Assembly (NCBI GenBank): GCA_937872095.1
Contig: CALMNW010000034.1
Span: 20,107 to 84,106, forward strand
Direction of reading: 5' to 3'
DNA from: an uncultured Verrucomicrobiota bacterium
GTDB taxonomy: Bacteria > Verrucomicrobiota > Kiritimatiellia > CAIQIC01 > Lenti-01
DNA: 64,000 bases
Part shown: positions 13,726-64,000 of the stretch, piece after piece
How the letters are laid out: each line of letters opens with the position of its first letter
Position numbering within the stretch: position 1 is the first letter of the stretch
Notes under the pieces: model-generated
Database searches by the model: none
What the model saw: only the letters and a program-made list of their open reading frames with translations
Told to the model about the DNA's origin: nothing
Made by a program: the position numbers and the translations under genes

Positions 13726-13726
13726 C

Positions 13727-14920: not shown

Positions 14921-14945
14921 CGAACGGAACCGGCGCCGGCCCGAC

Positions 14946-26872: not shown

Positions 26873-27253
26873 TCGCAAAATGGGGGAAGTTCGGTCGCCG
26901 GCAGCTACATCTGCGATGGATGTGACCGGCCAGCCGCCGGCGATATTAAAAATTGCGCTCTAACCTCTCAGTAACATGGCCTATTCGCTTTGCGTGAAGA
27001 ATATCGCGGCCTTTGAAATTCGTATTGCTCTGTTGGCAATGAAGATAAGATGAAACATCTTGTCGTGTCCGAGCAATCGGCAGGGGGTGGACATTCGGGC
27101 AAGGGACCGGCATTAACACAATCATAACTATATTGTAACCATATATTAATCGTACACAGTTTGCGTATAAATATCTAAACGGCTACTTTCTTTTCATCTA
27201 ATAAGCAGGCGGCTGATTTTATCCGTCGCCTTTGGTGTTTTGTGGCAAAAACG
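26873..27253 (+). promoter_or_regulatory. AT-rich intergenic region upstream of the giant gene; the only break in coupling in the first 40 kb
   Basis: About 380 bp, with the stretch 27100-27200 below 35% GC inside a ~67% GC context (tataaatatctaaacggctactttcttttcatctaataagc). No convincing ORF. Promoter elements are not individually assignable. Confidence 0.3.
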
Positions 27254-36200: not shown

Positions 36201-39200
36201 GCGGAGCGGTCGCCGTGCTGGGGCCCTCGGGCCTTTCCCAGAACGCGCCGGCGACGGAATTGGGCGAGGCGTTCTATCGGACCATCCTGCAAGACGGGAT
36301 GGGCGAACTGGGCATGGCTTTTCTGCGCGCCCGCCGTTCGCTGCCCGCGAGCCTGTTCTCCAAAGACACGATCGCGGTCTACAATTTGCTTGGGGATCCG
36401 GCCCTGCGCATCGCGGGGAACGATCCGGCCGCCGCGGCGAAGCTTCCGGCCCAGATCTTCCTGCAAGACCTTGCGCAGACCTGCGACGGCACTCCGCGCG
36501 CCGTTTCGGCCGCGACGGAACCGGCTGGCCTGGCGGTGCGCATCACCTACGACGGCCATGCCGTGGCGCCGACGGCGGTCGGCTCCTATGCGGTGGTCGC
36601 GACGATCGCGACGGCCGATTACGAGGGAACCGCCGCGGGGACGCTGGTGGTCTCGAAGGCGGCAGCGGCGGTGTCGTTGACCGATCTCGAGCAGATCTAC
36701 GATGGTACGCCGAAGACGCCCGCCGCGACGACGGAACCGGCTGGTTTGGCCGTGGAATTCACGTACGACGGAGAGGCGACGCCGCCGACGGCGGCCGGCA
36801 CGTACGCCGTCGTCGCCACCGTGGCCGATGCCCAATGGGCGGGCGTGGCCACGGGCCTGCTGACGGTGGCCAAGGCGCCGGCGACGGTGCTGCTGGCCGG
36901 TCTGGCCCAAGTTTTCGACGAAACTCCGAGAATTGCGACAGCCACCACCGTGCCGGAAGGATTGTCCGTCGAAGTCCGCTACGACGGCTCGGAAACGCCT
37001 CCGGTCGGCGCCGGCAGCTACGTGGTCACGGCCGTGGTGGACGATCCCAACTTCGAAGGCATGGCCTCCGACGTGTTGACGGTATCCAAGGCCTCGGCGA
37101 CGGTCGTCTTGGGCAGTTTGGCCCAGACCTACGATGGCCGGCCCAAATACGCGACGGCGACCACCGCGCCCGGCGAACTGGCCGTCGATTTCACGTACGC
37201 CGGCTCGGCGCGAGCGCCCGTTGCCGCCGGCAGCTATGCCGTGGTTGGAACCGTGAGCGATCCCAACTGGCAGGGATCGGCTGCCGGGACGCTGGCCATC
37301 GGCAAGGCGGACCAGACGATCCAATTTGCCTCGATCGCCGACCAGATCACGACCGCCGCGGTCGAATTGTCCGCCACGGCGTCCAGCGGGCTGCCCGTGT
37401 CGTTCGCCGTCGTTTCCGGTCCGGCCGTTCTGCTGGGCGGAACAAGTCTTTCCTTCTCGGGTCCGGGGACGGTCGTCGTGGCCGCCCGGCAGGGCGGAAA
37501 CGAAAACTGGAATGCGGCTCCGGAAGCAACGCAAGTGTTCAACGTCGTGCCGGTCGTGCTGAGCAGCACCCGCGTTCTCGTGCGCGAAAACGGGGAGGGG
37601 CGTTTCTTCGTGAAGCTCTCGCAAGCCCCCGCCGCCAATACGACCGTCACGGTGGCCCGTTGCGCGGGCAGCGAAAGCCTTTCCGTGGCGAGCGGCGCCG
37701 AGTTGGTCTTCAAGGCGTCGAATTGGGATGCGTGGCAACCCGTGACGCTGGCCGCGGATCAAGATGCGAACGGCAGCGACGAGACGGCCACCTTCCGCGT
37801 GTCGACGGCCGGAGCGGCGGATCGGCAGTTGGAGGCCGTCGCGTTGGATGGCGACGCCGGAGAGAATCTGGCCTCGCCGGCGCGGGGAACCGCCATTTCC
37901 GGGACCCGCGGCTATTTCCTGCCGCTGGCGATCGACGGCATCCACGCGTCCCGCACCAATTACGCCTATACGATCTGGAGCAATCCGTCGCCCGGCACGA
38001 TGATTCTGGATTTGCAGGGAATCACGACGGTGTCGCGCCTGCGGTTGTTGAATTGGGATTGGAGTTTCCGTTCCCACCAATACATGCTGGAGTCGTCGGA
38101 GGACGGCGAAGATTGGTCTCTCCTGGTCGATGCCCGGTCGGGCGAGCATCGCGGCTGGGAAGACTGGGTGGTGGATGACACGCCGGCCCGGTATTTGCGC
38201 TTCACGGGGACGTCCAATTCCGCGAATACCGCCGTGTGCATTGCCGAATGGGAAGTGTATGGTCCCACCGGTTCGACCCCGCGGCCGGTTTGTTCGGCCG
38301 TCGACGTATCCGTCCGCGAAGCGGGCGAAGGCCGGTTCTTCGTGCGCCTGAACCAGGCGCCCGAGTCGAACGTCGTGGTCGGAGTGGCATGCGCCGCGGA
38401 ATCCGCCGGTCTGTCCGTGAAGAGCGGGCAAGCCTTGACCTTCAAGCCTTCGAACTGGAACGTTTGGCAGCCGGTCGTGCTCGCGGCGGAAGAAGACGCC
38501 AACGCCGAAGACGAGACGGCGTCGTTCCGCGTTTCGCTTTCGGGCGCGGCGGATCGCTACGTGAAGGCAACCGCGCTGGACGACGACATCGGGGAGAACG
38601 TGGCTCTGGCCTCGAGCGGGACTTCGATCTCGGGCTCGCGGGGCTATCTCTTGGGGGCGGCCATCGACGGAACGCACCTGTCGAGCACCAACTATGCCTT
38701 CGTGGTTTGGCCGGGCTCGATGACCCTGGATCTGCAAGGCGAGGTGGTCGTTTCGCGGGTACGGCTGTTGAACTGGGACTGGACCCTCCGGTCCCACCGC
38801 TATCGGATCGAGGCTTCGCTGGACGGCGCGAACTGGTCGGTGTTGGCGGATGCGAGCGAAGGCGAACACCGCGGTTGGGAAGATTGGCCGGTCGCCGACC
38901 AGCGGATTCGGTTCCTGCGGTTTACCGGCCTATACAATTCCGCGAATTCCGCCGTGTGCATCGCCGAATGGGAGGTCTACGGCACGCGCACGCAGCGGTC
39001 CGAACTGGAGGTGTCGGCAACGAACGTCAACGTGCGCGAGGCGGGTGAAGGTCGCTTCTTCGTGCGGCTGGATCGCGCTCCGGCGGGAGACGTCGCGGTC
39101 GCGGTGGCGCGCGTTTCGGGCGATTCGGCCATTTCGGCGGAAGACGGGGCGACGCTGACCTTCAAGCCGTCGAATTGGAACGTCTGGCAGGCCGTGACGC

Positions 39201-46622: not shown

Positions 46623-48065
46623 ATGATGGTCACAAAGCGCCGTATCACTAGCAAGATCAAACAGCTGCGGGCGGAGCGATACATGGGCTGGTCTATCCGC
46701 AAGATGAAGATACTGGATAGTGGCATCGTTTTTTGGCAGTCGGACAACAACCTTCGCCCACCGCATCGGGAGCGAATGAGCTGGGAAGACATTGGCCAAG
46801 CCAAGGCCCATATCCAAGCGATGTCCACAGCGGTTAAAAACGAAGGGCGGGGTGCCTATGCCCTGACGCATGCTCAGAAAATCGAAGCTAAAGCGGCCAT
46901 AGATAAGCTCGGGGACAAGGTGAAGTTCGCGGACCTCCTGGCTTTCTGGGAACAGCATCATTCAGATGGCAAGTCTATAACCTTGGCCGAGATGCTAAGG
47001 GGATGGTTGGCCGAGGCGCAAGAAGATGGGCTAAAGCCTACGAGCATACGGCAGAACAAGCAGCGGCTTAACGCATTCATTGGGGAGGTCGGCGAAGAAA
47101 CGCCCTGCGCACTAGTAACCGGCGAAGTGGTAGAAGGATTTCTCGGCCAGCGCCCGTGCGGTAAGCCTACAAAAATTAGCTGGCGGAAAACGCTACATGC
47201 TTTCTTTGAATACTGCATCGAAAAGCAGGCCGTGTCCAGCAACCCCATCATCAAGTCACGCCGGGGGCGCCGGAGGCGCAAGAGAATCGAAGCCGCCACA
47301 AAGATTCCCGAGTTCATGCCGGTCAAGACGGTTAACAATTTCATGGCGAAGGCTGAAGAGCTTCATCCTGAGAGCGTACCTGCATTGGCGATCATGTTTT
47401 TTGCCGGCCTCAGGCCCTTCGAGGTGTCAGCGCAGTATGGTCTAGAAACTTCCGAACTGACCAGTGCTAGAGACACAACGGCGGCGGCGAACAAACGGCT
47501 GAAGAATGCAAAACCCGGAAGTCAGGCTGAGCGCGCAGCCAGGATCGCAGTAGATGATGCACGGCAAAAACTCAAAGCGTTGATGGAATCTAGTAGAAAG
47601 AAGAGAGGAAAAGCTCCGGCGACAATGGGTGGACTGGACTGGACTAATGTCAACCTTGCAAAGAAGTTCATACGTGTCCTACCGGAGACATCAAAAACAG
47701 GTGCGGGGCGTCTGGTTGACATCAGCAATAACCTCCTCCTGTGGCTTACGAAGTACTACAGGGCTTGCGGACCAGTCGCTCCATCACCGGTAACACTTAT
47801 TCGTCATAGACGGGACATCATGAAGAAAGCTGGCATCAAGAAGTGGCTCCCAGATGTGGCGCGGCACTCCTATGCAACCTATCATTTCGCCATGTACGAA
47901 AACCAGGACAAGCTGCAAGCGCAGATGGGGCACTCCGGAAAGGCCTACATCTTGACTGAGCACTACAAAGGTTTGACGACGAAGGAAGAGGCCGAGGAGT
48001 ATTGGAACATCAACCCGGCAAATCCGTCGGGCGGGGTCATACAACTTGCCACGAAGGGGGCATAG
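46623..48065 (+). CDS. int: Tyrosine-type site-specific recombinase/integrase
   Basis: The C-terminal catalytic region has the family order ...LRPFE (Arg box)...ARHSYATYHFAMYEN (His/Arg box)...HSGKAYILTEHYKG (Tyr nucleophile region). The N-terminal SAM-like core-binding domain is ~150 aa. Confidence 0.8.
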   Translation: MMVTKRRITSKIKQLRAERYMGWSIRKMKILDSGIVFWQSDNNLRPPHRERMSWEDIGQAKAHIQAMSTAVKNEGRGAYALTHAQKIEAKAAIDKLGDKVKFADLLAFWEQHHSDGKSITLAEMLRGWLAEAQEDGLKPTSIRQNKQRLNAFIGEVGEETPCALVTGEVVEGFLGQRPCGKPTKISWRKTLHAFFEYCIEKQAVSSNPIIKSRRGRRRRKRIEAATKIPEFMPVKTVNNFMAKAEELHPESVPALAIMFFAGLRPFEVSAQYGLETSELTSARDTTAAANKRLKNAKPGSQAERAARIAVDDARQKLKALMESSRKKRGKAPATMGGLDWTNVNLAKKFIRVLPETSKTGAGRLVDISNNLLLWLTKYYRACGPVAPSPVTLIRHRRDIMKKAGIKKWLPDVARHSYATYHFAMYENQDKLQAQMGHSGKAYILTEHYKGLTTKEEAEEYWNINPANPSGGVIQLATKGA

Positions 48066-49470: not shown

Positions 49471-49629
49471 GGAGGCGACCATGCGCAAGCTCAACAAAAC
49501 GGCCACCACCGTGTCACCGATGGCGGCCAGCAAGATCAACAAATCGGTGTATAGCACGGCGCCGGCGAGTTGCTCAAGCAAATCCGCCACAATGACGATA
49601 TCCGCGGCGGCGGAAGAGGGGAGGCAGAT

Positions 49630-52149
49630 GTGAGCCTAAACCGTTCCCTGCTCGAGAACGTGAAGACCGCCAACGGCAAAACCACTGCGCGCTGCCCGGC
49701 TTGCAAGGAGAGCGGTTGCGACGAGGGCGGCGATCACCTGGTGATATATCCGGACGGCCGGTACGGATGCGCCGTGAATCCTGGCGACAAAGTACACACT
49801 AAGCGGATCTTCGAACTGGTGGGCGCTAACAACGAGCCGTCAGCGCAGCACCCCGGTCGAAAGAGCGGCATGGTGTATTCAACCATCGAAGCAGCTACAT
49901 CTGCGGCGCGACGGTTCGTGGAAAAGAAAACCGAAGAATCATGGAAGTGGATCCGGACCGATGTATACAGGAGCGCGACAGGCGAACCTGTGGCCGCCGT
50001 CCTGCGCTTCGATCGTGCAGACGGGGCAACCGAGGATAACGGAAAACCCATCAAGACATATAGGCCGGTTCACGTGGTTGACGGTGGCTGGCAGTTGGGA
50101 GATCCCCCGGGCTTGCTGCCGCTGTTCAACCTGCCGGCGATCGTCAATTCCGACGGCATCATTCATATCAACGAGGGCGAGAAGGCTGCCATGGCGGGCA
50201 CGGCGCTTGGCCTGACTTCCACCACCTCCATGCACGGCGCCAAGTCGGCGGCCAAGACCGACTACGCTCCGCTGAAAGATCGAGACGTGGTGATTCACCC
50301 GGACAACGACCGAAAAGGCCGCGAGTACGCTGAAGATGTGGCGGCCCGCGCATATGCCGCCGGGGCCGCATCCGTCAAGATCGTCGTCTTGCCCGGTCTA
50401 CCGCCCAAGGGCGACATGGCCGACTACGTAGCCGCAAGGACGGGAATGGGGATGGAATCCGTACGGGCGGAAGTTGTGGCAGTGGCCGATGCGACGGAAG
50501 TGTGGTCTCCGGCCAAGGCGGCCGCCGCTGGTGTAAAACCGACGATCGTTCTTCCCGGCGGCCCACGAACCATCACGGCTGCCGGAGAGGACTTGGGCCG
50601 ACTGTTGGCATCTACTCAAAAGGTCTTCATCCGGGGCGGTGCTCTTGTCACATTAGATGCGGACGGGGATGGGCATCCAATCCTGCGCCAGCTCAAGCCG
50701 GTGGCGTTGGCATCGGTCTTTGAGTCGGTGGCCACCTTGGCGAAAATGACTCAAGGTAGCTTACAACCAGCCATCTGCACCGAGTCAGCGGCCAACTTGA
50801 TCGGGTCATCGGCCGCATTTCGTGATCAAATGCCGTCAATCCGTATTATAACGCGGTGTCCGGTGTTGATTGAGCGCAATGGCAAGTTGCTCCAAATCAC
50901 GGGCTACGACTTGGCGTCTGGCATCATGGCTGGTGGCTGTCCCGTTCCGGATATGACGCTGACCGAGGCCAAGGAGCGGCTCTACGAGCTGCTGCGCGAC
51001 TTCCGGTTCGCCACTCCCGCAGACCGGGCACGCGCTCTAGCGGCACTGATAACGCCGGCAATGGTTTTCGGAGGATTGTTGAAAGGACGGCCACCCATCG
51101 ATCTTGGTGAGGCTGACGATTCGCAGGCAGGGAAGGGGTTTCGGAATAAGATCAAATCCCGCGTATACGGCGAGACAATGCGCTGCATCGCCCAGAAACG
51201 CGACGGAGGGGTGGGCAGCTTGGAGGAGTCGTTCAACGCGGCATTGATTCAAGGGGCGGTGTTCATATGCCTTGAGAATGTTCGCGGCAAGATAGACTCG
51301 CCCGCGATAGAATCGTTCATCACCGAGGATCACTATACGGCCAGATGCGCCTATCACGAGAACGTCGACATCGATCCGCGCCGGGTTTGCTTGTCCATGA
51401 CGTCCAACAAAGCGGACCTGACCACCGATCTGGCGAACCGTTGTGCGTGCGTGAGGATACTCAAACAACCGCAGGGCTACGCGTACGCCCGATATCCAGA
51501 GGGTGACATCCTAGACCACGTGGCGGCGTACCAGGGCCGGTACCTTGGCGCCGTGTTTGCCGTGATCCGGGCTTGGCATGCTGCAGGTTGTTCGCGCACG
51601 GACGAATGTCGCCACGACTTTCGGGCGTGGGCACAGACCATGGATTGGATCGTTCAAAACCTTATGGATGCCGGGCCGTTATTGGACGGCCACCGGGAGA
51701 CTCAGCGGCGGATGACCAATCCGTCCATGAATTGGCTGCGCGACGTAGCGCTTGCTGTCGTCCGTGCTCAGCGGACCGACGAGGGGCTGCGGGCGGGACA
51801 TCTCGTCGACCTACTGGCCGAGGCGGGCGTCGATGTGCCGGGCCTTCCAGAAGGTGGGGATCCGTCAGAACCCAACAACCGGAAGTCGGCACAGCAGGCC
51901 GTTGGCCGCAAGCTGTGGCAATGTTTCCGGAACGAAGATGTGGTGGCGATCGACAGCTTTACCATACGCCGCCAGACCACATACAACCAACAGCACCGAT
52001 CTGAGACCAACGAGTATTGGTTTTCTGCAGCAGGCAATGGGGACGGCGATGGTCCTATAGTCGCAGGGCCCCCAGATTTAACCAAAGAAACCGCCCCGGT
52101 ACTGCTGGTATCGCTTGGGCTTCGGCCCCCAGACGCCAACTGCGGCTAA
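49630..52149 (+). CDS. Bifunctional DNA primase/helicase-like replication protein (Zn-finger, TOPRIM-like, then phage/plasmid P4/D5-type helicase region)
   Basis: GTG at 49630 with a strong RBS gaggggagg 5 nt upstream; the track's alternative start is at 49570. Zn-binding CPACKESGCDEGGDHLVIYPDGRYGC. TOPRIM-like acidic motifs IHINEGEKAAMAGT...VVIHPDNDRKGREYA. A C-terminal ~450-aa region resembles primase-associated D5_N/helicase domains. Confidence 0.6.
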   Translation: MSLNRSLLENVKTANGKTTARCPACKESGCDEGGDHLVIYPDGRYGCAVNPGDKVHTKRIFELVGANNEPSAQHPGRKSGMVYSTIEAATSAARRFVEKKTEESWKWIRTDVYRSATGEPVAAVLRFDRADGATEDNGKPIKTYRPVHVVDGGWQLGDPPGLLPLFNLPAIVNSDGIIHINEGEKAAMAGTALGLTSTTSMHGAKSAAKTDYAPLKDRDVVIHPDNDRKGREYAEDVAARAYAAGAASVKIVVLPGLPPKGDMADYVAARTGMGMESVRAEVVAVADATEVWSPAKAAAAGVKPTIVLPGGPRTITAAGEDLGRLLASTQKVFIRGGALVTLDADGDGHPILRQLKPVALASVFESVATLAKMTQGSLQPAICTESAANLIGSSAAFRDQMPSIRIITRCPVLIERNGKLLQITGYDLASGIMAGGCPVPDMTLTEAKERLYELLRDFRFATPADRARALAALITPAMVFGGLLKGRPPIDLGEADDSQAGKGFRNKIKSRVYGETMRCIAQKRDGGVGSLEESFNAALIQGAVFICLENVRGKIDSPAIESFITEDHYTARCAYHENVDIDPRRVCLSMTSNKADLTTDLANRCACVRILKQPQGYAYARYPEGDILDHVAAYQGRYLGAVFAVIRAWHAAGCSRTDECRHDFRAWAQTMDWIVQNLMDAGPLLDGHRETQRRMTNPSMNWLRDVALAVVRAQRTDEGLRAGHLVDLLAEAGVDVPGLPEGGDPSEPNNRKSAQQAVGRKLWQCFRNEDVVAIDSFTIRRQTTYNQQHRSETNEYWFSAAGNGDGDGPIVAGPPDLTKETAPVLLVSLGLRPPDANCG

Positions 52150-53066: not shown

Positions 53067-53639
53067 ATGAAATCCTTCAACATCTTCCTGACCATCGTTG
53101 TACTCACCGTCGGAGCCGCTCTAGCCGTCTATCTCGCCGGCTGCCACAAGCAGGTAGTCCGTGCCGTCACTATTTCCGTTATGAAGCAAATTCCTCAAGC
53201 ATGGTTGATCCTGCAGACCGACGAAGAACTGACTGTCGCGACCATCGACGGCGGAAATCTCCTTTTCGGTCCCCGGTCCGGAATGGCATCGGCCGTTCGA
53301 AGATCGCATTGGGGACTCAACCTGGAACTGATCGTCGACGAGGACATCGTGGTCTCAGGACGCGAGGTACGCATCAAGCTGCCGGATCCAGCAGTCTTCG
53401 ACACGGTGGTCGACATGTCCACATTCCGCTATTTGACGCGTCGCAGTGGTTTCCACGCTTTGGGTGACGTTTTATGGGGTCGGTCGTTGTTCAGTGAATT
53501 GGCCGAGATCGCCTGCCAGACGCCGCCCAAGTACAGCCGGGAGCAGATCCAGGCACGGCGGTCGGACTTCATCCTACGACTGAACGAGCAGGCGGCATCG
53601 CTGTTCGCGGCGAAAGATCTGGTTGTTCGATTCGAGTAG
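53067..53639 (+). CDS. Hypothetical protein with an N-terminal signal/anchor helix
   Basis: RBS aggagg 9 nt upstream. MKSFNIFLTIVVLTVGAALAVYLAGC resembles a signal peptide or lipobox (LAGC). 190 aa. Confidence 0.45.
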   Translation: MKSFNIFLTIVVLTVGAALAVYLAGCHKQVVRAVTISVMKQIPQAWLILQTDEELTVATIDGGNLLFGPRSGMASAVRRSHWGLNLELIVDEDIVVSGREVRIKLPDPAVFDTVVDMSTFRYLTRRSGFHALGDVLWGRSLFSELAEIACQTPPKYSREQIQARRSDFILRLNEQAASLFAAKDLVVRFE

Positions 53640-53835
53640 GCGGTAACCATGCCTCAATCGTTTCGATACCCGTGGCCAAGTTCCGCGATCGATCCCGGCT
53701 TGATGCGACGGTTGTACCTGGCGCGCGAAAGCTCGCCTACGCCCACGACCATCACCCGACTCATTGCCGAAGCCGTGCGCGCCGCCTATGGCCAGTCCAA
53801 TCCCCAACCTGAAACCCAACCACCCAAGGAGTCCA

Positions 53836-55248
53836 ATGAAACTGTTGCTACCCCGTTCCGAACTGAAGGAAGCGCTGACCGGCCTGTCCAAGGTCATCAA
53901 CCAGCGCGCCAGCATCCCGATCCTGGCCTGCGTGCGGCTTGACGCCGAAGGCCAGACCGTCCTCCTGACGGGCACGTCCATCGATCAGACCGCCAGCTAT
54001 GCGATCACCGTCGCCGAGCCCGTGCCTGCGCCTATCGCGGTCCTGATTTCCATTGCCGAGCTGCAGGCTGTCCTGAAGACGGCGCAGGGGCCCGACATCG
54101 AGATCGAGCCCGGCAAGGACGCCGTGACGATCACCGCCACCGTTGCCGGGCAGGGGATCGGGCGTCGCATCGAGACCCCGGACATCCAAGACTGGCCGGA
54201 GCTGGCCACGCCCGCCGACACCAAATCCGTCGAGCTCGGCTTCTTGGCCAGCTTGCGACGGGTGCTGGCGTTCGCTTCTCCGGACGATTCCCGACCGCTC
54301 TTGAAAGCCGCGTATTTGGATGTGTCCGCCAAGGCCGGCCACCGGATCGTGGCGACCGACAGCCGGAGGCTGACCGTCCTGCCCTGCGGGATCCTGCCGC
54401 TGGCCGAGTCGGTGATCGTCCCGTCCACCAAGTTTTTGAATTGGTCCAAGCTGGAAGGGGAGACCCGGATCGGCGCGGGCAAGGGCGTCTTTACGCTCCG
54501 GTGTGGGCCCTGGACCTATACCGCCAAGACGGTGGAAGGCCAGTATCCGCGCTGGAGCCAGGTCGTGCCCGCCTACGGGGGTGACCGGACGCTGGAGCTC
54601 TCCGAGGCCGATGCAGCGATGCTCATCAAGGCCATGCCGGGCCTGCCGACCTACGACAGCAGCCACGAGGCCGTCGTGCTGTGCATGGAGGGCAACGCCG
54701 TCCGGGTGTTCTCCCGGCAGGACGCCAAGAGCCCCGAGAGCGCCGTCCGGCTTGAATCCAGCCAGTACGAGGGGAAGGGTGCCTTCTCCGTCGGCCTGAA
54801 CCGGGAGTTCTTCCGGGATGCGCTGCAGGCCGGGTTCCGCTACTGGGAGTTTCAGGATGCCGTGAGCCCGCTTCTCGGCCGCCTGTCCAAGGACGACAAG
54901 GCCAGCATCCACGTCCTGATGCCCATCCGCACGATCGACGCCGAGGTACAAAAGGCCGAAGCCAAAGCCCCGGAGGCCAAGCCCACCCCCGTTCCCGTTC
55001 AACCCCAACCCAAGGAGATCCCCATGCCAAAGAAACACGAAGAAGTCCAACCCGCGGTCGAACCCGGGGCTCTGGACAAGATCCTGGTCGCCTACGAGTC
55101 CGCGAAGAACGCGGTGCGCCAGGCGCAGTCCGCGCTGGCCGACGTGGCGCTCTGCGTCCGCGACGCCATCCGCGAACAGAAGGCGCAGAGCCGCGAAATC
55201 GCGGAAGTCCGCGCCGGCCTGGCCAAGCTCCAGACCATCCGGGTGTAG
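53836..55248 (+). CDS. DNA polymerase III beta-subunit (sliding clamp, DnaN) homologue with a C-terminal Pro-rich linker and coiled-coil extension
   Basis: RBS aaggag 6 nt upstream. N-terminus MKLLLPRSELKEALTGLSKVINQRASIPILACVRLDAEGQTVLLTGTSIDQ follows the DnaN domain-I pattern (MKF...R..L...L..v...v.....lPiL..vll.a..g.l.l.atDle). Three ~110-aa repeats of the clamp fold, then AKAPEAKPTPVPVQPQPKEIPMPKK and a helical tail. Confidence 0.55.
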   Translation: MKLLLPRSELKEALTGLSKVINQRASIPILACVRLDAEGQTVLLTGTSIDQTASYAITVAEPVPAPIAVLISIAELQAVLKTAQGPDIEIEPGKDAVTITATVAGQGIGRRIETPDIQDWPELATPADTKSVELGFLASLRRVLAFASPDDSRPLLKAAYLDVSAKAGHRIVATDSRRLTVLPCGILPLAESVIVPSTKFLNWSKLEGETRIGAGKGVFTLRCGPWTYTAKTVEGQYPRWSQVVPAYGGDRTLELSEADAAMLIKAMPGLPTYDSSHEAVVLCMEGNAVRVFSRQDAKSPESAVRLESSQYEGKGAFSVGLNREFFRDALQAGFRYWEFQDAVSPLLGRLSKDDKASIHVLMPIRTIDAEVQKAEAKAPEAKPTPVPVQPQPKEIPMPKKHEEVQPAVEPGALDKILVAYESAKNAVRQAQSALADVALCVRDAIREQKAQSREIAEVRAGLAKLQTIRV

Positions 55249-55325: not shown

Positions 55326-55367
55326 GATTTAACTAAACAAACAACAAACCAACCCCAAGGAGATCAT

Positions 55368-55601
55368 ATGCATCCATTCGTCGTACTGCTCGCCATTGGA
55401 ACCGCGCTCGCTCATGACACTGGCAGGCGCCTGGAGATGCCCGTCGTGGCGCCCAACCGGCTCGAAGCCGTCTGCATCGCCGAACGTAACGGCAACGTCA
55501 TCGTTGCGGACGACGAGTACGTCTATGCCAAGTCGGTGCGGCCGGTCCATACCAGCCACTTCACCTTCACGCCGCCCTCGGGGCTGGCCGTGGCCGTCTA
55601 G
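55368..55601 (+). CDS. Hypothetical small protein (77 aa)
   Basis: Strong RBS aaggagatcat before the ATG. The product has a hydrophobic N-terminus and no domain match. Confidence 0.4.
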   Translation: MHPFVVLLAIGTALAHDTGRRLEMPVVAPNRLEAVCIAERNGNVIVADDEYVYAKSVRPVHTSHFTFTPPSGLAVAV

Positions 55602-55659: not shown

Positions 55660-56163
55660 TTGAAACAAAACGAACAGGAGAATGAATCCATGAGCGTGAA
55701 TCTTGAAATGTCCTACGCGAAAAAAGTTGGGTTGCCCGAATACTCGAGCCACAATTTCAGCGTCTCGCTGAAGACCGAGGTGGCCCGCCTCGAAGACGTG
55801 TCCGGCGAAGTCGAACGGGTCTACCGGCTTCTTCAGACGGCGGTGGACGAGCAAATCGTCAACCCCGGCTTTGTCCCCGGCCACGAGCAGTCGGCACCCG
55901 CACCCAAGAACGGTGTCGACGACAGCAAGCCCTGGAAGTGCTCGGACAAGCAGAAGGCGCTGATCCTCAAGGTCGTCGCCGAGAACAAGCTCGACCGCGT
56001 CGAAGTGGAGCAACTGGCCGTCACCCGGTTCGGGCACGGCGTCGCCCTGCTTAACAAGCTGGAGGCTTCGGGGCTCATCGACGAGTTGCTGGGCAAAACC
56101 GGTCGCTCGTCGGCGAAGAAGGCCGGCGCCTTCCGCCCCTTCGAGCAGCGGAGGGCGGCGTGA
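55660..56163 (+). CDS. Hypothetical protein (167 aa)
   Basis: ORF with an acidic N-terminus. An alternative ATG at 55690 has a better RBS (caggagaatgaatcc). Confidence 0.4.
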   Translation: MKQNEQENESMSVNLEMSYAKKVGLPEYSSHNFSVSLKTEVARLEDVSGEVERVYRLLQTAVDEQIVNPGFVPGHEQSAPAPKNGVDDSKPWKCSDKQKALILKVVAENKLDRVEVEQLAVTRFGHGVALLNKLEASGLIDELLGKTGRSSAKKAGAFRPFEQRRAA

Positions 56164-57011
56164 GCGCCCAGGCGGCCGTTTTCCACAGCGGGTCGCTCGA
56201 CGAATCCAAGCCCGGCGATCCGTTGGCGTACATCAGCGCTTCGAGATTGAAGTCGTTCCTGACCTGCCGACTTCGGTTCTTTTACGAAAAAGTTTTGGGA
56301 CTGAAAGCGCCGGCGTCCCCGGCGCTCCAGATCGGCAAGGCGGTCCACGCGGGCTTGCAGCATTTCAACCTGGCTCGCTGGCGGGGTGGGGACACTTCGC
56401 CGGCCGCCACGCTGCAGGCGTACGACAAAGCCTACGGAGAATTGGAAGTCCAGGGTCCGGTGGATTACGAGGGCAAGGATCGCACGGAGTGCATCGACAC
56501 GGGACAGCGCGTGCTGGATGCCTATCTGGGCTCCGATCTGGCCAGCGATCCGCGGCGGATCTTGGGCGTGGAAGCCTATCTTCGCCGAGAAGAGGGGTTG
56601 CCGCTGCCGCTGGTCGGCGTCCTGGACTTGGTGCTCGAAGGCAACGTGCCGGTGGATTTCAAGACGGTGGCCTCCACGCCCGTCCTTGAAGACGAAGCCT
56701 GGCAAAACGAACTCCAGCTCACCGCCTATCACCTGCTGATGCAAGACGCGACGGGCGAGGAGCCGGGTCAGGGGGAGTTGGTTTACCTGACGAAAACGAA
56801 GGCCCCGAAGATCGTCAAACAGGTGTTGCCGCCCGTGACCCAGGTGCAGATCGACCGCCTAAAGGCGCTGATCGACGTTTACGCCGATGGTGTTAGCCGG
56901 GAGGACTACCACCCCTCACCGGGAATGTCGTGCCGCTGGTGTTCGTATAGGACGCAGTGTGCGGCATGGGCCGGGTCCAAGGTCCGGAAGGCTGTCGGCA
57001 TGGCCGCATGA
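56160..57011 (+). CDS. PD-(D/E)XK nuclease, Cas4/RecB-exonuclease-like, with a C-terminal Cys cluster
   Basis: GTG start overlapping the upstream stop. Motifs VGVLDLVLEGNVPVDFKT (D...D/E-x-K core) and a terminal CRWCSYRTQC, plus an earlier Cys (FLTCRL), resemble the Cas4/AddB-type Fe-S nuclease arrangement. Confidence 0.5.
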   Translation: MSAQAAVFHSGSLDESKPGDPLAYISASRLKSFLTCRLRFFYEKVLGLKAPASPALQIGKAVHAGLQHFNLARWRGGDTSPAATLQAYDKAYGELEVQGPVDYEGKDRTECIDTGQRVLDAYLGSDLASDPRRILGVEAYLRREEGLPLPLVGVLDLVLEGNVPVDFKTVASTPVLEDEAWQNELQLTAYHLLMQDATGEEPGQGELVYLTKTKAPKIVKQVLPPVTQVQIDRLKALIDVYADGVSREDYHPSPGMSCRWCSYRTQCAAWAGSKVRKAVGMAA

Positions 57012-57309: not shown

Positions 57310-58044
57310 ATGCCCGTATGTAACTTGTGTCTTCATTGCGGGGCGGCTCAAGTCCCGCGCGCGGCCTTGGCGGCCGTGCCAACGCCCGCGGCCACCGAAA
57401 CCTGGAGGCCGATTCCTCACGAGGAGTATGTTCGCCAGGTCGAATGGGAGCTGCCACGCTACGGCCTCGACATTGTCGCCGAAGCGCACGCGCTGACGCA
57501 CGACTCGTCGAGGTACTTCGGCTTGATCCAGGTCCAGAACGGGTGCAATAGCCCTGACTATTCCTGGGTCTTGGGCTTGCGTAACTCCCATGACAAAACG
57601 CTGACGGCCGGTCTGGTCGCCGGCAGCCAGGTGTTCGTGTGCGACAACCTGGCTTTTTCGGGTGAGGTGAGCGTCAGCCGGAAGCACACGGTCAACATCC
57701 TGGAAGACCTGCCCGGCCTGGTCGGCGGCGCTCTCGGGCGACTTCTGCTGATGTTCAAGTCGCAGGACCAGCGCGTCGAACGCTACCGGGCAACCCGCCT
57801 GAGCGAGCCCGATGTGCACGACCTGACGATCCGGGCATTGGATTCGGGCGTCGTCTGTGCTTCCAAGATCCCCGAAGTGCTGAAGGAATGGCGAGAGCCT
57901 CGCTACCGTGAGTTCGAGCCCCGCACGGTCTGGAGCTGGTTCAACGGCGTGACGGAGACGGCCAAGGGTGCGCTGCATTTGTTGCCGCGCCGGACCCAGG
58001 CCCTTTACCGGCTGTGCGACGACTTCGTCGGCGTCGCTGCCTGA
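57310..58044 (+). CDS. Hypothetical phage/plasmid-like protein (244 aa)
   Basis: RBS aaggaggg 6 nt upstream. No confident family assignment. Confidence 0.4.
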   Translation: MPVCNLCLHCGAAQVPRAALAAVPTPAATETWRPIPHEEYVRQVEWELPRYGLDIVAEAHALTHDSSRYFGLIQVQNGCNSPDYSWVLGLRNSHDKTLTAGLVAGSQVFVCDNLAFSGEVSVSRKHTVNILEDLPGLVGGALGRLLLMFKSQDQRVERYRATRLSEPDVHDLTIRALDSGVVCASKIPEVLKEWREPRYREFEPRTVWSWFNGVTETAKGALHLLPRRTQALYRLCDDFVGVAA

Positions 58045-59415: not shown

Positions 59416-59724
59416 ATGAGCCTAGTTGCCGTGCCCGACAAAGAAACCAGTCTAGCTCCTGAACCAGCCGAGTGGCCGATAGACGGCACGCTCGACCTGC
59501 ACCTGTTTCAGGCTAAAGATGTAGGCGATCTGATGCCGGGGTATCTGGCCGAGTGCCGCAAGCGGGGCATTCTGCAGGTCCGGATCGTGCACGGCAAGGG
59601 GACGGGACAGCTGCGGGAACGGGTGCACGCCGTCCTGCGGAAGCTGCCGGAGGTGGCTGGGTTTGGCATGGCGACGGAAGCGATGAGAGGGTGGGGGGCG
59701 ACGGTGGTGGAGATGAAACCTTGA
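59416..59724 (+). CDS. Smr (small MutS-related) domain protein
   Basis: LDLHLFQAKDVGDLMPGYLAECRKRGILQVRIVHGKGTGQLRERVHAVLRKLPEV matches the Smr pattern (LDLHG...eA...l..fl.....g...vriIhGkGtG.Lr..v...L). Confidence 0.6.
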   Translation: MSLVAVPDKETSLAPEPAEWPIDGTLDLHLFQAKDVGDLMPGYLAECRKRGILQVRIVHGKGTGQLRERVHAVLRKLPEVAGFGMATEAMRGWGATVVEMKP

Positions 59725-59998: not shown

Positions 59999-62900
59999 AT
60001 GAAAAATGACACAACCCGATCATGTTCCGAGTCGATTACAAATCGGCGAGCCTTCGGTTGTAGCGGGCGAATTCATCGTGGCAGCCCAAATATACCGAGT
60101 GGAGGAAGAACGGTAGCGGCTATTTTTGTGGCGCTTGTGGAGTTTATCCTAACCGGTGCGGCCGGAACATGCTTCGCAGGATCAGCTCAGTTTGCGCCGC
60201 TCAACCCGGAATTCATCGACTACCAGCGGAGAGCGCAGGCTGATCAGCCGTCCGTGCGCGCTGAAGAGGGCGAGGAACTCCTGGGATATGTTCCGGCCTC
60301 TGTTAGCATCACGGCCATGGCCGGCACTAATCGCTTCAAGAAGGCAATGCCTCGCTCATTTCCTGCAACCTACGATCTAAGACAATCGGGGCGTCTTACT
60401 CCTGTCAAGGACCAGATAATTTCTGGCCCATGCTGGGCTTTCGCTGCCGTTGCGTCCCTCGAATCCTGTCTCACGCTTGAAGGGTCCAGCGACTTTTCAG
60501 AGAAGAACCTGGCCAATCTTCACGGGTGGGACTGGAGCCCAACCAATGGGGGGAATGGAATATTGGCGACCGCATACCTGTGCCGATGGGACGGCCCCGT
60601 CAATGAATCCGATGATCCTTACCCTGCCGGTGCGTGGCAAAGCAGTCTGCCCGGGCTGCCTGTCCAGAAGCACGTTCAGCAAGTCCGTATGATTTTCGGC
60701 AAGTCCAGTCCCACCGACAACGACGCCATCAAACAAGCGCTGACCGACTATGGCGCTGTCTTTGCCTCCTATTACCATGCGAACAGCTACTACAGCTCGG
60801 TCAACTCCGCCTATTACTATTCTGGGGCCAACAATGGCAACCATGGTGTTGCCATTGTCGGGTGGAATGACAATTTTGACCGCACGCGCTTTCCGGTGGC
60901 TGCCCCGTCCAACGGAGCCTACATCGTCAAGAACAGTTGGGGTACTGGGTGGGGCGATGCCGGATATTTCTATGTGTCATATTATGACACCAAATTTGCC
61001 CATGAAGACATGTTTGTATTTATGAACGCTGAACCCGTTGGCAACTACATGAAATGCTACCAATACGATCCGCTGGGATGGATCAGCTCTTTCAGGCAAC
61101 CATGGGCGGCGGCGATTTATACGGCCAGCGCATCGGAACCTCTTCAGGCGGTGGGCTTTTATTCTGCACAAGCGGCTAGCTACGAACTATACGTCTACAC
61201 TAATGTCGAAGCCGGAGCCCCTCGAAGCGGCACGCTTGCAAGCAGCATATCTGGCACTTTGCCGTCCGCAGGTTTCCACACGGTTTCACTGGCCGCGCCC
61301 GCCGCATTGGTGGCGGGACAGCGGTTTTCGATTGTTTTACGGCTGATAAACGGTGGCGATTATCCCCAGGCAATTGAATATGCATATAGCGGCCTAACCA
61401 GCGCGGCCACCGCCGCCCCCGGGCAGACCTTCTATAGCTCCGATGGCTCCCAATTCACCGATCTGACGGCACTTGAGTCGACAGCCAATTTTTGCATCAA
61501 AGGCTATACTGGTACAGATACGACTCCCCCGGGGGAGCCCACAATTTCGTCGACGACCCACCCGGACGAGAACGCCTGGTATGCCAATGGCAACCCGTCG
61601 TTTACCTGGACCACGCCATCCGACGCGGGCGGGATAGGCGGGTATAGTTATGTTCTGGACGGTTTGGCCACGACGATTCCGGACACCACGGCGGACGCGG
61701 CGGGGAATACAAAAACCTATTCAAGCATTCCCGACGGAACATGGTATTTCCATGTGCGGGCCAAGGACAATGCCGGCAACTGGGGCACGGTGGATCACTA
61801 TCGAGTGCAGATCGACAAAACAGCACCGACTTTCGGCAGCGTCGCGGTCAGTCCGACTCCGGCCAAACAGGGTGCGGCGGTTTCGATCACGTTCACGGCG
61901 TCCGAGACCCTGGCGGCCAATCCGACCGTAACGGTCAACAGCCACGCGGCGAGTTACAGCAGCAAGTCTGGGAATAACTACACGTACAGCTACACGGTCC
62001 TGTCGTCGGATTCCGACGGCGCCGCGGCAATCGCGATCTCCGGCGCGGACCGAGCGGGAAACGCCGGTTCGGGCAGCAGCACCTCGGCCCTGACCGTGGA
62101 CAAGACGCCGCCGACATGCGCCATCGTTCGCAACGACCCAAATCCGACGTCGGCTTCGACCGTGCATTTCAATGTGAACTTTAGCGAGAACGTGACAGGT
62201 TTTGTTCAGGCCGACGTCGATCTGACCGGCACAGCGCCCGGGAAGAGCATCACGGGCTTCAGCGGGGGGCCGCAAAACTTCGTCGTGACCGTCTCGGACA
62301 TCGGCGGAAGCGGGACCGTGGCGGTCGATGTGGACGCCGGCAAGTGCACAGACGCGGCGGGCAATCCCAACACGGTGGGCGCGGCAGCGAGCTACACAAT
62401 CGATCAGGGCGAAGTCGGCGTGACGATTACCCAGTCCGACGAAAGCACGGCGGTGACCGAGGGGGGAAGTTCCGACACCTATACGGTGGTTCTCAAGACG
62501 CAGCCGTCTGCAAATGTTGCCGTGACGGTCAGCCCGGGAAGCCAGTTGTCGGCATCGCCGACGACGCTGCCCTTCATTCCCGGCCAGTGGAACGTCGCCC
62601 AGACGGTCACGGTGAGCGCCGTGAACGACGCGCTATACGAAGGCCCGCACTCTGCAACGATTACGCATAGCGCCGCCAGCAGCGACGGCAACTATAACGG
62701 CATTCCTGTGACCAGCGTGGCGGTGACGATCACCGACAACGATGCTCCTCCGACGGTCCGCTTCGCTGCGGCGACCCAGTCCAAAGCCGAAAATAGCGGG
62801 ACGGCCTTGGTCACGGCGGAGCTTTCGGCTGTTTCCGGTCTGGCAGCCACAGTGCCGTTCACGCTATCGGGGTCGGCGTCGAACGGAGCAGACTTCACGG

Positions 62901-64000
62901 TAACGGCCAGCCCGATCATCATTGCCGCGGGCAGCACGAATGGAACCGCGACGATCACAATCGCCAACGATGCGCTGGACGAAGACGACGAGACGGTCGT
63001 CGTGACCATGGGCGTGCCGGCAAACGCAACCCAAGGGGCTACGATCGTCCACACGCTGACGATCACGGACGACGATGCGGCGCCCACGGTGGCTTTCACT
63101 TCCGGCAGCCAGACTAAGGGCGAGGGCGGCGGAACCGTGGCGGTTACGGCGCAACTCTCGACGGTGTCCTGCAAGAACATAAGCGTGCCGTTCACGGTAT
63201 CGGGGTCGGCAACAAACGGAGCTGACTATTCGATCACGGCCAGTCCGATCAACATCCCTGCAGGAAACGCCACCGGGAGCGCAACAATCACCATTGTTGA
63301 CGATGCTTTGACCGAGAGCAACGAGGCGGTCATCGTGACGATCGGAACGCCGGAGAACGCAACCAAAGGAACTCCGTCCGTCCACACGTTGACCATCACC
63401 GACAACGACACGCAGAGTCTGGTGGTGTCGCCGGCAGTTCTCAGCGTGCCAGAAGGTGGCACAGCGAGTTTTTCGTTGTGCCTAGCTAAGCAGCCTCAGT
63501 CAAGCGTGGCGGTAACGACCACTCGGATTAGCGGCGATACGGACCTCAGCGTCAGCGCTGGTGGGACGATCACCTTCAATTCCGAGGATTGGAATACGCC
63601 CAAAAACATAACGATTGTCGCGGCCCTAGACGAGGACGATATAAGCGGTAGCGCGGTCTTTGCTGTCTCATCGCCCGGGTTGACCACGGTCAATGTAACT
63701 GCAATCGAAGCCGACAAGGATGCAGAGCATCTCTGGATGATATATGTCGATGCAAGCCGCCCCGACGACAATGGAGATGGCTATTCGTGGGCAACGGCCA
63801 AGAAGACAATTCAGGCGGGCATCGACTTGGCAGCCGACGGAATGACGGTGCTGGTGACCAATGGCCTTAACAACATCGGCGGCCGGGTCACGCCAGGATA
63901 TACGCTCTCTAACCGGGTTGTCATTACCAAGGCCATCACCGTGCGCAGCGTCAACGGGCCTGAAGCAACAATAATTGAAGGCTCCGGGACGAATGCATAT
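59999..64000 (+). CDS. Giant secreted surface protein, 3' end beyond the window: C1 (papain-like) cysteine peptidase domain, Ig-like domains, at least 3 Calx-beta repeats, pectate-lyase-like beta-helix start
   Basis: Absent from the ORF track because it has no in-window stop. My translation of the frame containing 59999 is stop-free for more than 1330 codons. Signal/anchor VAAIFVALVEFILTGAAGTCFA. Papain active-site motifs DQIISGPCWAFAAVASLES (Cys), NHGVAIVGWNDN (His) and YIVKNSWGTGWGDAGYFYVSY (Asn/Trp). Calx-beta units VRFAAATQSKAENSGTALVTAELSAVS...VVVTMG, three copies. Terminal LWMIYVDASRPDDNGDGYSWATAKKTIQAGIDLAADGMTVLV is beta-helix-like. An alternative ATG is at 59894. Confidence 0.7.
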   Translation, partial: MKNDTTRSCSESITNRRAFGCSGRIHRGSPNIPSGGRTVAAIFVALVEFILTGAAGTCFAGSAQFAPLNPEFIDYQRRAQADQPSVRAEEGEELLGYVPASVSITAMAGTNRFKKAMPRSFPATYDLRQSGRLTPVKDQIISGPCWAFAAVASLESCLTLEGSSDFSEKNLANLHGWDWSPTNGGNGILATAYLCRWDGPVNESDDPYPAGAWQSSLPGLPVQKHVQQVRMIFGKSSPTDNDAIKQALTDYGAVFASYYHANSYYSSVNSAYYYSGANNGNHGVAIVGWNDNFDRTRFPVAAPSNGAYIVKNSWGTGWGDAGYFYVSYYDTKFAHEDMFVFMNAEPVGNYMKCYQYDPLGWISSFRQPWAAAIYTASASEPLQAVGFYSAQAASYELYVYTNVEAGAPRSGTLASSISGTLPSAGFHTVSLAAPAALVAGQRFSIVLRLINGGDYPQAIEYAYSGLTSAATAAPGQTFYSSDGSQFTDLTALESTANFCIKGYTGTDTTPPGEPTISSTTHPDENAWYANGNPSFTWTTPSDAGGIGGYSYVLDGLATTIPDTTADAAGNTKTYSSIPDGTWYFHVRAKDNAGNWGTVDHYRVQIDKTAPTFGSVAVSPTPAKQGAAVSITFTASETLAANPTVTVNSHAASYSSKSGNNYTYSYTVLSSDSDGAAAIAISGADRAGNAGSGSSTSALTVDKTPPTCAIVRNDPNPTSASTVHFNVNFSENVTGFVQADVDLTGTAPGKSITGFSGGPQNFVVTVSDIGGSGTVAVDVDAGKCTDAAGNPNTVGAAASYTIDQGEVGVTITQSDESTAVTEGGSSDTYTVVLKTQPSANVAVTVSPGSQLSASPTTLPFIPGQWNVAQTVTVSAVNDALYEGPHSATITHSAASSDGNYNGIPVTSVAVTITDNDAPPTVRFAAATQSKAENSGTALVTAELSAVSGLAATVPFTLSGSASNGADFTVTASPIIIAAGSTNGTATITIANDALDEDDETVVVTMGVPANATQGATIVHTLTITDDDAAPTVAFTSGSQTKGEGGGTVAVTAQLSTVSCKNISVPFTVSGSATNGADYSITASPINIPAGNATGSATITIVDDALTESNEAVIVTIGTPENATKGTPSVHTLTITDNDTQSLVVSPAVLSVPEGGTASFSLCLAKQPQSSVAVTTTRISGDTDLSVSAGGTITFNSEDWNTPKNITIVAALDEDDISGSAVFAVSSPGLTTVNVTAIEADKDAEHLWMIYVDASRPDDNGDGYSWATAKKTIQAGIDLAADGMTVLVTNGLNNIGGRVTPGYTLSNRVVITKAITVRSVNGPEATIIEGSGTNAY

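Follow-up and report, generated by a model that had tools for sequence, protein, structure and literature searches.

Sliding clamps are hubs of DNA replication and repair, and mobile elements borrow the clamp of their host, as is well documented (PMC6698660, PMC11417375, PMC12867686), or bring a plain copy of their own. Why would such an element bring a clamp that is not plain? The question is raised by a gene in a 64,000-nt stretch of DNA (the window) from an uncultured Verrucomicrobiota bacterium, positions 20,107 to 84,106 of contig CALMNW010000034.1 (assembly GCA_937872095.1). The gene, at 53836..55248 (+), lies on an integrase-bearing integrative mobile element and encodes a 470-aa protein composed of a beta-clamp (DnaN) module, a disordered linker, and, at the C-terminal end, a helical tail. 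The answer that we favour, with a probability of about 55%, is that the element has a clamp with a conserved coiled-coil tail on a variable linker, and that this one gene gives two products, the complete protein and a free tail peptide whose translation starts within the linker.

A preliminary description of the gene, made from the sequence letters, had taken it for a DnaN homologue with a three-domain clamp pattern, and this holds in sequence and structure comparisons alike. The open reading frame (ORF) at 53836-55248 (+), whose product begins with MKLLLPRSELKEAL, is preceded by a Shine-Dalgarno (SD) sequence, AAGGAG, at 53826..53831 (+). Its translation matches the N-terminal (34.6 bits, cut-off 24.4) and central (30.6 bits, cut-off 27) domains of Pfam DNA_pol3_beta, as well as PHROG 947, "DNA polymerase processivity factor" (2.3e-25), and phmmer against the PDB retrieves beta clamps at 1e-13 over residues 5-365. 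The Pfam model of the C-terminal domain gives no match at E<=1, yet the fold of domain III is predicted (see below). Residues 1-366 align end to end with TIGR00663 dnaN (model positions 1-367 of 367), with a score of 89 bits that is below the equivalog cut-off of 137.65; the protein belongs to the beta-clamp superfamily and is not a housekeeping dnaN equivalog.

Structure prediction had been named beforehand as the check on which the assignment would stand or fall. The AlphaFold2 model, a single-chain prediction from an alignment of 63 family sequences, has a mean predicted local distance difference test score (pLDDT) of 82.3 and a predicted template modelling (TM) score (pTM) of 0.70. Averaged over 10-residue blocks, the pLDDT exceeds 90 across most of the three clamp domains, drops below 50 in the linker segment 373-410, which is predicted to be disordered, and is about 67-77 along a single uninterrupted helix, 412-469. 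When this model is compared with the PDB using Foldseek, all 50 matches listed are bacterial beta clamps (best E 4e-26), with target-normalised TM-scores of 0.79-0.86 at 17-23% identity. The predictions thus do yield the three-domain clamp fold, and the model confirms that the ORF encodes a divergent but complete beta clamp, with a module spanning residues 1-365 (53836..54930, +) and ending in the cleft-forming LMPIR.

The partner-binding surface of this module was compared across 40 diverse family members aligned with E. coli beta, whose numbering is used here; the reference sequence agreed at 26 of 26 landmark positions checked. Positions L155, T172, G174, R176, L177, P242, and V247 of the cleft are kept in at least 30 of the 40 members, as are N320 (N/D), Y323 (Y/F), V360, M362, P363, and R365. 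The equivalent of H175 is Arg, that of Q149 is an invariant Asp, and that of the DNA-contact residue R24 is R or K in 31 of the 40. By alignment, then, the hydrophobic partner-binding cleft between domains II and III is conserved, and the clamp looks functional; a conserved cleft makes plausible the earlier suggestion that such a clamp could recruit proteins of the host replisome. The extension begins immediately behind the MPIR that helps to form the cleft at the C-terminal end of the clamp, which should put it on the polymerase-binding face.

Beyond the clamp lie a Pro/Ala/Gln/Lys-rich linker of 46 aa (residues 366-411; 54931..55068, +) and a tail (residues 412-470; 55069..55245, +) with a predicted helix of 58 residues (412-469). 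The preliminary description had quoted the linker peptide PEAKPTPVPVQPQPKEIPMPKK, which is present in the translation, and had rightly considered a Pro-rich linker with a helical tail to be atypical for DnaN. Among the 40 members, mean pairwise identity is 42.3% in the tail, 34.6% in the clamp, and 17.9% in the linker, whose length also varies, from 31 to 79 aa in family representatives. In the same alignment, the heptad a and d positions of the tail are hydrophobic in 88-100% of cases over 413-445 and in 100% over 455-465, Ala is frequent at positions d, e, and g, an always-charged break separates the two segments at 446-454, and Arg459 is invariant. The C-terminal end is conserved as LQx[IV][KR][VLI]-COOH. 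These patterns indicate a coiled-coil helix that evolves more slowly than the clamp itself. Searches of the tail against Pfam (E<=5), the PDB (by profile), and PADLOC gave no family match, the only Pfam hit being a meaningless one to DUF3391. The label "exonuclease VII small subunit" attached by JGI to one truncated member could not be reproduced and was treated as a coiled-coil artefact. The tail end was also considered as a clamp-binding motif and rejected, because LQx[IV][KR][VLI] fits neither QL[SD]LF nor QLxLxL.

How far this architecture extends was addressed by searching a profile of the tail helix against 1.84 billion representatives. The survey of homologous islands, put forward earlier as a way of checking the idea, shows that the clamp-tail architecture recurs: 114 tail-bearing proteins were found, which correspond to clusters at 50% identity. 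In all 114 the tail match ends within a few residues of the C-terminus, and in most at the last residue. Clamps of 447-525 aa make up the long matches and fragments the short; five of the short sequences (P0126, P0137, P0141, P0144, and P0152) begin in a way that seems foreign to the family and look like assembly chimeras. In this search the tail was not found on any protein other than a clamp, and it is thus a clamp-specific conserved module. Among the matches listed, 120 close homologues share 60-100% identity with the window protein, including the Bryobacteraceae protein HPT26866.1; 118 of these 120 are 465-479 aa long, and coverage of the query is end to end except in two 5'-truncated fragments.

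A wider survey, in which one genome per species was scanned, completes this picture. The same architecture occurs at 36-55% identity in metagenome-assembled genomes (MAGs) of Verrucomicrobiota, in a Victivallales MAG, and in an unclassified bin with two copies; two diverged copies, L008 and L009, with 37-38% identity to the window protein, lie on different contigs of bin AM-2014 bin-1020. All family sequences come from metagenomes or MAGs, and the family spans Acidobacteriota, Verrucomicrobiota, and Victivallales MAGs. Its confinement to poorly studied environmental phyla is probably why it has gone unnoticed so far. No tail-bearing clamp was found among INPHARED phages, PLSDB plasmids, or IMG/VR viral contigs: clamp matches end at residues 365-366 in INPHARED, at 331-367 in PLSDB, and at or before 365 in IMG/VR, except for one match of 27% identity that reaches 384, also without the tail. 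A single interrupted tail was seen, in locus L017 (2150-2300), where an in-frame TAG falls within the helix (ALDKM*AAYD); this is a pseudogene or a sequencing error.

Comparison of the linkers within this family brought out a feature that the preliminary description had overlooked. In this otherwise variable region, the sole conserved element is K-E-x(1-3)-M, located 6-29 codons ahead of the helix. In the window it is the stretch KEIPM, encoded by an internal SD sequence and a start codon: the site reads ...CAACCCAAGGAGATCCCC ATG, with AAGGAG at 55012-55017 (+; codons Lys393-Glu394) and the ATG at 55024-55026 (Met397). Translation from this ATG would produce a nested in-frame ORF, 55024..55248 (+), predicted from the conservation of the SD and ATG, and hence a free tail peptide of 74 aa. 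AAGGAG and ATG are present in 10 of 10 loci of a first set. More generally, each of 38 non-redundant tail-bearing genes has an in-frame ATG within the 31 codons before the helix, and in 29 of them AAGGA or AGGAG ends 4-10 nt upstream of it. Equal-sized windows elsewhere in the same genes contain such a site in 22 of 394 cases (5.6%), and codon shuffling predicts 1.9 sites in 37 genes, where 28 were observed, a number that none of 200,000 simulations came near. The SD is read as AAG-GAG (Lys-Glu) in 20 genes and as GAA-AGG-A (Glu-Arg) in most of the remaining nine, mainly from a distant subgroup; this use of two registers implies that the nucleotides, not the peptide, are conserved.

The surroundings of the internal ATG likewise have the look of a start region. 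The 50 nt around it fold with a mean energy of -3.6 kcal/mol, versus -13.1 in windows of the gene body (p=1.6e-20), and its leader is 71% A+C. It resembles both the start of the clamp gene itself, CCAAGGAGTCCA ATG, and that of the next gene, a 77-aa ORF, CCAAGGAGATCAT ATG. A repeat finder also links two of these sites directly, with a 21-nt repeat of 86% identity (55000-55020 versus 55345-55365; family D4). This repeat, CAACC(C)CAACCCAAGGAGATC, precedes both the internal ATG and the 77-aa gene, and the clamp start has the related CCACCCAAGGAG. To judge from these sequences, start sites of the element seem to share a stereotyped leader, rich in A and C, together with AAGGAG. Automatic gene callers choose the internal ATG on contigs that are cut within the gene, and the upstream frame is open in six of six such cases; the six short "tail-only" proteins that had been traced as candidates for stand-alone tail genes all proved to be fusions on truncated contigs. 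Among the complete genes, only that of L017 has an interrupted frame, so the 470-aa fusion must be made. In addition, these signals indicate that the gene probably also yields the free 74-aa tail from Met397.

The same linker sequence could be read in another way, namely as a programmed translational pause that gives the clamp domains time to fold or dimerise before the tail emerges, or as a neutral relic of a gene boundary, with only the 470-aa protein being made. Internal SD-like sequences have been proposed, not without dispute, to pause ribosomes, and the universality of the clamp-tail fusion, with split genes not seen, would fit such a role. However, a pause does not need an ATG, yet an in-frame ATG is found in all 38 genes; moreover, a 21-nt stretch of it reproduces the entire start region of genes nearby, and the mRNA is unstructured there. 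We thus consider it unlikely that the site is merely a pause or a relic.

Several points nonetheless weigh against a tail-bearing element clamp that is made in two forms. Use of the internal ATG is a prediction from sequence signals, and internal SD-like sequences can be pause sites; nine of the 38 genes have a weak SD or none. The unstructured, A/C-rich mRNA could be a by-product of encoding a Pro/Thr/Gln-rich disordered linker, and the p-values treat related sequences as independent and so overstate their independence. No clamp and tail encoded as separate natural genes were found among the six short tail-only proteins checked. As no known domain matches the tail, its role rests on position and conservation, and the E. 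coli dimer-interface residues I272/L273 are not kept in the 40-member alignment. As for the element itself, there is no tRNA in the window, and no convincing flanking direct repeat, as expected of attachment (att) sites, was found.

The setting of the gene nevertheless is that of a mobile element, as had been proposed on first description. In the host part of the window (1-44 kb), most 2-kb blocks have a G+C content (GC) of 65-68% (range 61-68%). The GC drop begins after 44-46 kb, with values of 53-61% over 46-54 kb and 58-64 kb and of about 64% over 54-58 kb. A tyrosine integrase gene at 46623..48065 (+; Pfam Phage_integrase 27.8 bits, cut-off 27.1; PHROG 1, 1.4e-19) marks the left end of this lower-GC island, at which about 65% GC gives way to 53-56%. 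As for the right end, it may be located around 59.8-61 kb or farther on; close to this presumed end, 59416-59724 encodes a protein of 102 aa with an Smr domain (Pfam 2e-19), and the region 59.8-61.6 kb contains no convincing ORF. Neither capsid nor conjugation genes were recognised among the island proteins with Pfam and PHROG. The clamp does not have dnaA, recF, or gyrB as neighbours; it is instead accompanied by genes for the integrase, a primase-helicase, a nuclease, and a DUF932 protein (57310..58044, +; Pfam 28.6 bits, cut-off 23), the latter with homologues in L004, L006, and L007. A DUF4230-like protein of 190 aa with a lipoprotein-type signal, encoded at 53067..53639 (+), has conserved counterparts upstream of the clamp in close relatives. 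The module recurs in unrelated genomes (MAGs of Bryobacteraceae, Verrucomicrobiota, and Victivallales, with two copies in one bin and different flanks), and related loci keep its gene order in chromosomal contexts that differ.

The primase-helicase (49570..52149, +; possibly with a GTG start at 49630) is present as first described, with a Toprim part and a VapE/D5-like part; it matches PHROG 239 (1.6e-19) and, in PADLOC, a DnaG-like model, while its Pfam matches to Toprim_2 and VapE-like domains are below cut-off. It had been suggested that the tail serves as a docking arm for this protein, thereby coupling priming to clamp use. The two genes are indeed only 1.7 kb apart in the window, and close relatives keep a homologous primase part in the same order. 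However, BLAST clustering of the window and loci L001-L011, which did not extend to later loci, recovers a homologue only in L002, L003, L004, and L006 besides the window, although this argument from missing homologues is limited by flanks of 6-10 kb. Other elements carry different replication proteins, a DUF5906 helicase in L002 and L004 and an AAA_25 protein in L007, yet the tail remains about 42% identical family-wide. With a patchy primase, varying helicases, and a tail conserved throughout, the docking idea is not supported, and we regard it as quite unlikely.

The genes that do travel with the clamp are found immediately around it. A survey of about 43 tail-bearing loci with profile hidden Markov models detected a small upstream ORF in 14, the 77-aa ORF in 18, a family of 157-aa proteins in 25, and a nuclease in 19; the latter two are also present in the distant subgroup and accompany the clamp family-wide. 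In the window, the 77-aa ORF (55368..55601, +), the start region of which is nearly identical to the internal site, directly follows the clamp gene. In L001, about 4 kb of minus-strand cargo (11463-15524), including a gene for a GYF_2-domain protein, lies between the two, so the module tolerates interruption at this point; an RHS/Ntox28 toxin gene is found upstream on the same contig. Next come the gene for the 157-aa protein (55690..56163, +) and that for a Cas4-like PD-(D/E)XK nuclease with four cysteines (56160..57011, +; Pfam PDDEXK_1 7.2e-30; PHROG 69, exonuclease), whose start overlaps the stop of the former. The Cys and D..D/ExK motifs of the nuclease are apparent in an alignment. PADLOC gives only generic Cas4/DruK nuclease-domain matches for this protein, and its defence models do not match the clamp, the upstream ORF, the 77-aa ORF, or the 157-aa protein.

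The family of the 157-aa protein numbers 751 sequences, none of which has a Pfam match and one of which comes from Kiritimatiellaeota bacterium B1221. In the AlphaFold2 model of the window protein (pLDDT 69.5, pTM 0.33), a disordered middle part connects a beta-beta-alpha N-domain with a three-helix C-domain. In Foldseek, this C-domain matches the C-terminal domain of lambda Red-beta (6m9k, 8tfu) with a probability of 0.90-0.98, TM-scores of 0.67-0.77, and E of about 0.45; for 6m9k alone, the probability is 0.96-0.98 and the TM-score 0.69-0.77, with a root-mean-square deviation of 1.7-2.2 A. Weak matches to ERF/RecT were obtained among BFVD viral models, and weak matches to GemA in six of 17 members (best E 0.0037, below threshold); no sequence-level link to any family of single-strand annealing proteins (SSAPs) was found. 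The model thus suggests that an exonuclease/annealing-protein pair lies next to the clamp, and it is possible that the SSAP-like 157-aa protein and the four-Cys nuclease form a miniature SynExo recombination pair. An ATP-dependent ligase gene is also present in two loci: in L009 it immediately follows the nuclease gene, and in L004 it is a short way downstream.

This neighbourhood allows a reading that overlaps the one we favour and differs from it in emphasis: the clamp would be a platform for the exonuclease/annealing-protein(/ligase) module rather than a factor of origin-dependent replication. The nuclease would resect, the Red-beta-like protein anneal, and the clamp be loaded at the annealed 3' end, followed by synthesis and ligation, in recombination-dependent replication or repair, with the tail tethering one protein of the module. 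In keeping with this, it is the SSAP-like protein (25 loci) and the nuclease (19 loci) that track the clamp family-wide, and not the primase-helicase, and the ligase gene is near the nuclease in both L004 and L009. The likeness to the Red-beta domain is pertinent too, as this domain binds lambda Exo, and the weak ERF/RecT matches point the same way. Furthermore, N-terminal motifs of the nuclease, SAQAAVF and TQVAIF, resemble clamp-binding motifs; this likeness is loose, however, and differs among subgroups. Similarly, the Foldseek E-value of about 0.45 concerns a small three-helix domain in a model of low scores (pLDDT 69.5, pTM 0.33), the 157-aa protein has no sequence-level link to SSAP families, and gene proximity in a mobile element is no proof of physical interaction. 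A clamp devoted primarily to recombination is therefore possible, but clearly the less probable emphasis.

Other small features of these neighbours were noted in passing. SAQAAVF is found at the nuclease N-terminus in the window (56160-56190) and TQVAIF in L006 (3357-4436), while other subgroups have MNLSDYR or MIALA at this position. In most of the loci L001-L038, the small upstream ORF, the SSAP-like protein, and the nuclease end in Ala-Ala-COOH (..RAA, ..RRAA, ..GMAA); homologues of the 77-aa ORF mostly end in ..LALAA, the window copy in ..LAVAV. Such ends resemble ClpXP degrons of the ssrA/CtrA type, and by this analogy the module may be under proteolytic control.

Upstream of the clamp, the small conserved ORF (53649..53942, +) has the motif YRYPWPASAL..DM..L..RE....PIT.LIA.AVR..Y and overlaps the clamp gene by 107 nt, so that its last ~35 codons simply read the region of the conserved clamp N-terminus in the -1 frame; in L008 and L009, by contrast, it ends at the clamp start, with stop and ATG sharing nucleotides (ATGA). 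The small ORF is present in 10 of 10 complete loci of the first set, has no Pfam or PADLOC match, and is possibly a small DNA-binding regulator. The position of this possibly DNA-binding ORF directly upstream of the clamp bears on a further scenario, in which the clamp tracks replicated DNA and the tail contacts RNA polymerase or a regulator of the element, thereby switching on late genes. There is precedent for clamp-activated transcription, with T4 gp45 and with the host clamp and the phage Mu C protein (PMC12867686). However, the case is one of analogy alone, and no sigma factor or activator partner was recognisable in the module with Pfam and PHROG, which makes such coupling highly improbable.

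One may also ask whether the clamp is aimed at the host. The protein or its free tail could redirect host replication to the element's benefit, or stall it, by forming mixed rings with DnaN, by soaking up clamp loader and DNA polymerase III (Pol III) through the cleft, or by binding of the tail to a host protein. The conserved cleft could indeed bind host clamp-binding motifs, the exploitation of host clamps by mobile elements is known (PMC6698660, PMC11417375, PMC12867686), and a small peptide made separately is the format of many phage-encoded inhibitors of host factors. Against this, the tail shows no similarity to known inhibitors in Pfam, PADLOC, and PDB searches, its LQx[IV][KR][VLI] end does not follow either clamp-binding consensus given above, and an integrated element that is maintained for long has little reason to poison its host. 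Host take-over of this kind seems very unlikely to us.

Taken together, these data are best accommodated by a clamp that is the integrative element's own and not a part of the host replisome, with the 470-aa clamp-tail protein and the ~74-aa tail peptide started at Met397 as its two forms. The host clamp loader would load the element clamp on primer-template junctions, made either by the element primase or, as annealed 3' ends, by the exonuclease/annealing-protein pair. The conserved cleft would then engage motif-bearing partners, such as host Pol III and possibly the nuclease and ligase of the element. The tail, next to this cleft, may self-associate or bind a partner encoded by the element, thereby marking or tethering the clamp for element-specific replication and recombination. 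In turn, the free tail, with the same coiled-coil surface, may complete the assembly or compete with it, and so set its stoichiometry. In a more specific and tentative version, which we think is rather doubtful as it stands, the clamp-borne tails and the 74-aa peptide would form a coiled-coil bundle over the partner-binding face, and the ratio of long to short product would regulate access to the clamp or its tethering. To our knowledge, control by such a ratio has no counterpart among bacterial, phage, or eukaryotic clamps; if real, it would make this a new type of regulated clamp, in use throughout a family of mobile elements of Acidobacteriota, Verrucomicrobiota, and related phyla.

Three other features of the window, away from the island, can be mentioned. 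In the host part, a giant ORF of 4292 aa (27242-40120) combines a Peptidase_C25 (gingipain-like) domain with eight SdrD_B repeats and with MBG_3, F5/8 type C, and SpaA-like domains, and presumably encodes a surface protease or adhesin. A gene at 23129-24553 encodes a radical SAM/SPASM protein with an N-terminal PqqD-like domain, of the peptide-maturase type, and adjoins polysaccharide-biosynthesis genes (21231-23132). Right of the island, minus-strand ORFs rich in V/T/A repeats contain a 224-nt direct repeat whose two copies (62852-63408) share 74% identity.

DnaN homologues encoded by phages and plasmids are known; what appears to be new here is the conserved tail with its coiled coil, the probable production of that tail as a peptide of its own, and a cross-phylum family sharing both. 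Neither the clamp-tail family, nor its tail, nor release of the tail as a separate product is described in the literature and domain libraries searched, and no report of an internal-start arrangement for any clamp was found in that literature. If true, the proposal would open a new way to study how mobile elements make the host replisome their own or regulate it, and would add a compact natural case of bacterial isoform control, with a clamp linked to an exonuclease/annealing-protein module of the recombineering kind.

Among known systems, the closest in fold is bacterial DnaN itself (P. aeruginosa 6AMS, E. coli 1MMI/7AZC), with TM-scores of 0.79-0.86 at about 20-23% identity. The N-terminal and central Pfam domains are shared, as is the cleft, including the C-terminal MP(I/M)R, and the equivalent of R24. 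In contrast to DnaN, the element clamp scores below the equivalog cut-off, is encoded outside the dnaA-dnaN-recF setting, has Asp in place of Q149, does not keep I272/L273, and carries about 105 additional C-terminal residues, an extension that none of the PDB clamps listed has, except for artificial fusions. The phage and plasmid DnaN homologues of PHROG 947 are likewise clamps of mobile elements that presumably use the loader and polymerase of the host. They are found, for instance, in Paracoccus phage vB_PsuS_Psul1, Microcystis phage Mae-JY04, and Sinorhizobium phage AP-16-3, and on plasmids of Sphingosinicella and Thermoanaerobacterium. Unlike the protein described here, to which they are 22-26% identical, they lack the tail.

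In-frame internal starts that give C-terminal isoforms are familiar from T7 gene 4A/4B, the Tn5 transposase and its inhibitor, ClpB, IF2, and CheA. The layout is the same, with an SD and ATG within a longer ORF and a short product that shares the C-terminal interaction module; in the present case, that product would consist of nothing more than a clamp's coiled-coil tail, and use of the start is predicted. The lambda Red/SynExo system (Exo and Red-beta; 6M9K, 8TFU) also couples a nuclease of the PD-(D/E)XK superfamily translationally to a small protein. The Red-beta C-terminal domain binds Exo and SSB, and the three-helix domain of the 157-aa protein superposes on it. However, the partner encoded by the element is short, at about 150 aa, and its beta-beta-alpha N-domain is minimal, the nuclease is Cas4-like with four Cys rather than lambda-Exo-like, and the match is of fold only, with a weak E-value. 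We know of no SynExo system that includes its own clamp. Finally, in the eukaryotic 9-1-1 checkpoint clamp, a long flexible C-terminal tail of Rad9 recruits partners. This clamp is a heterotrimer of unrelated lineage, and the Rad9 tail is disordered and phosphorylated, whereas that of the element clamp is a conserved, predicted coiled coil.

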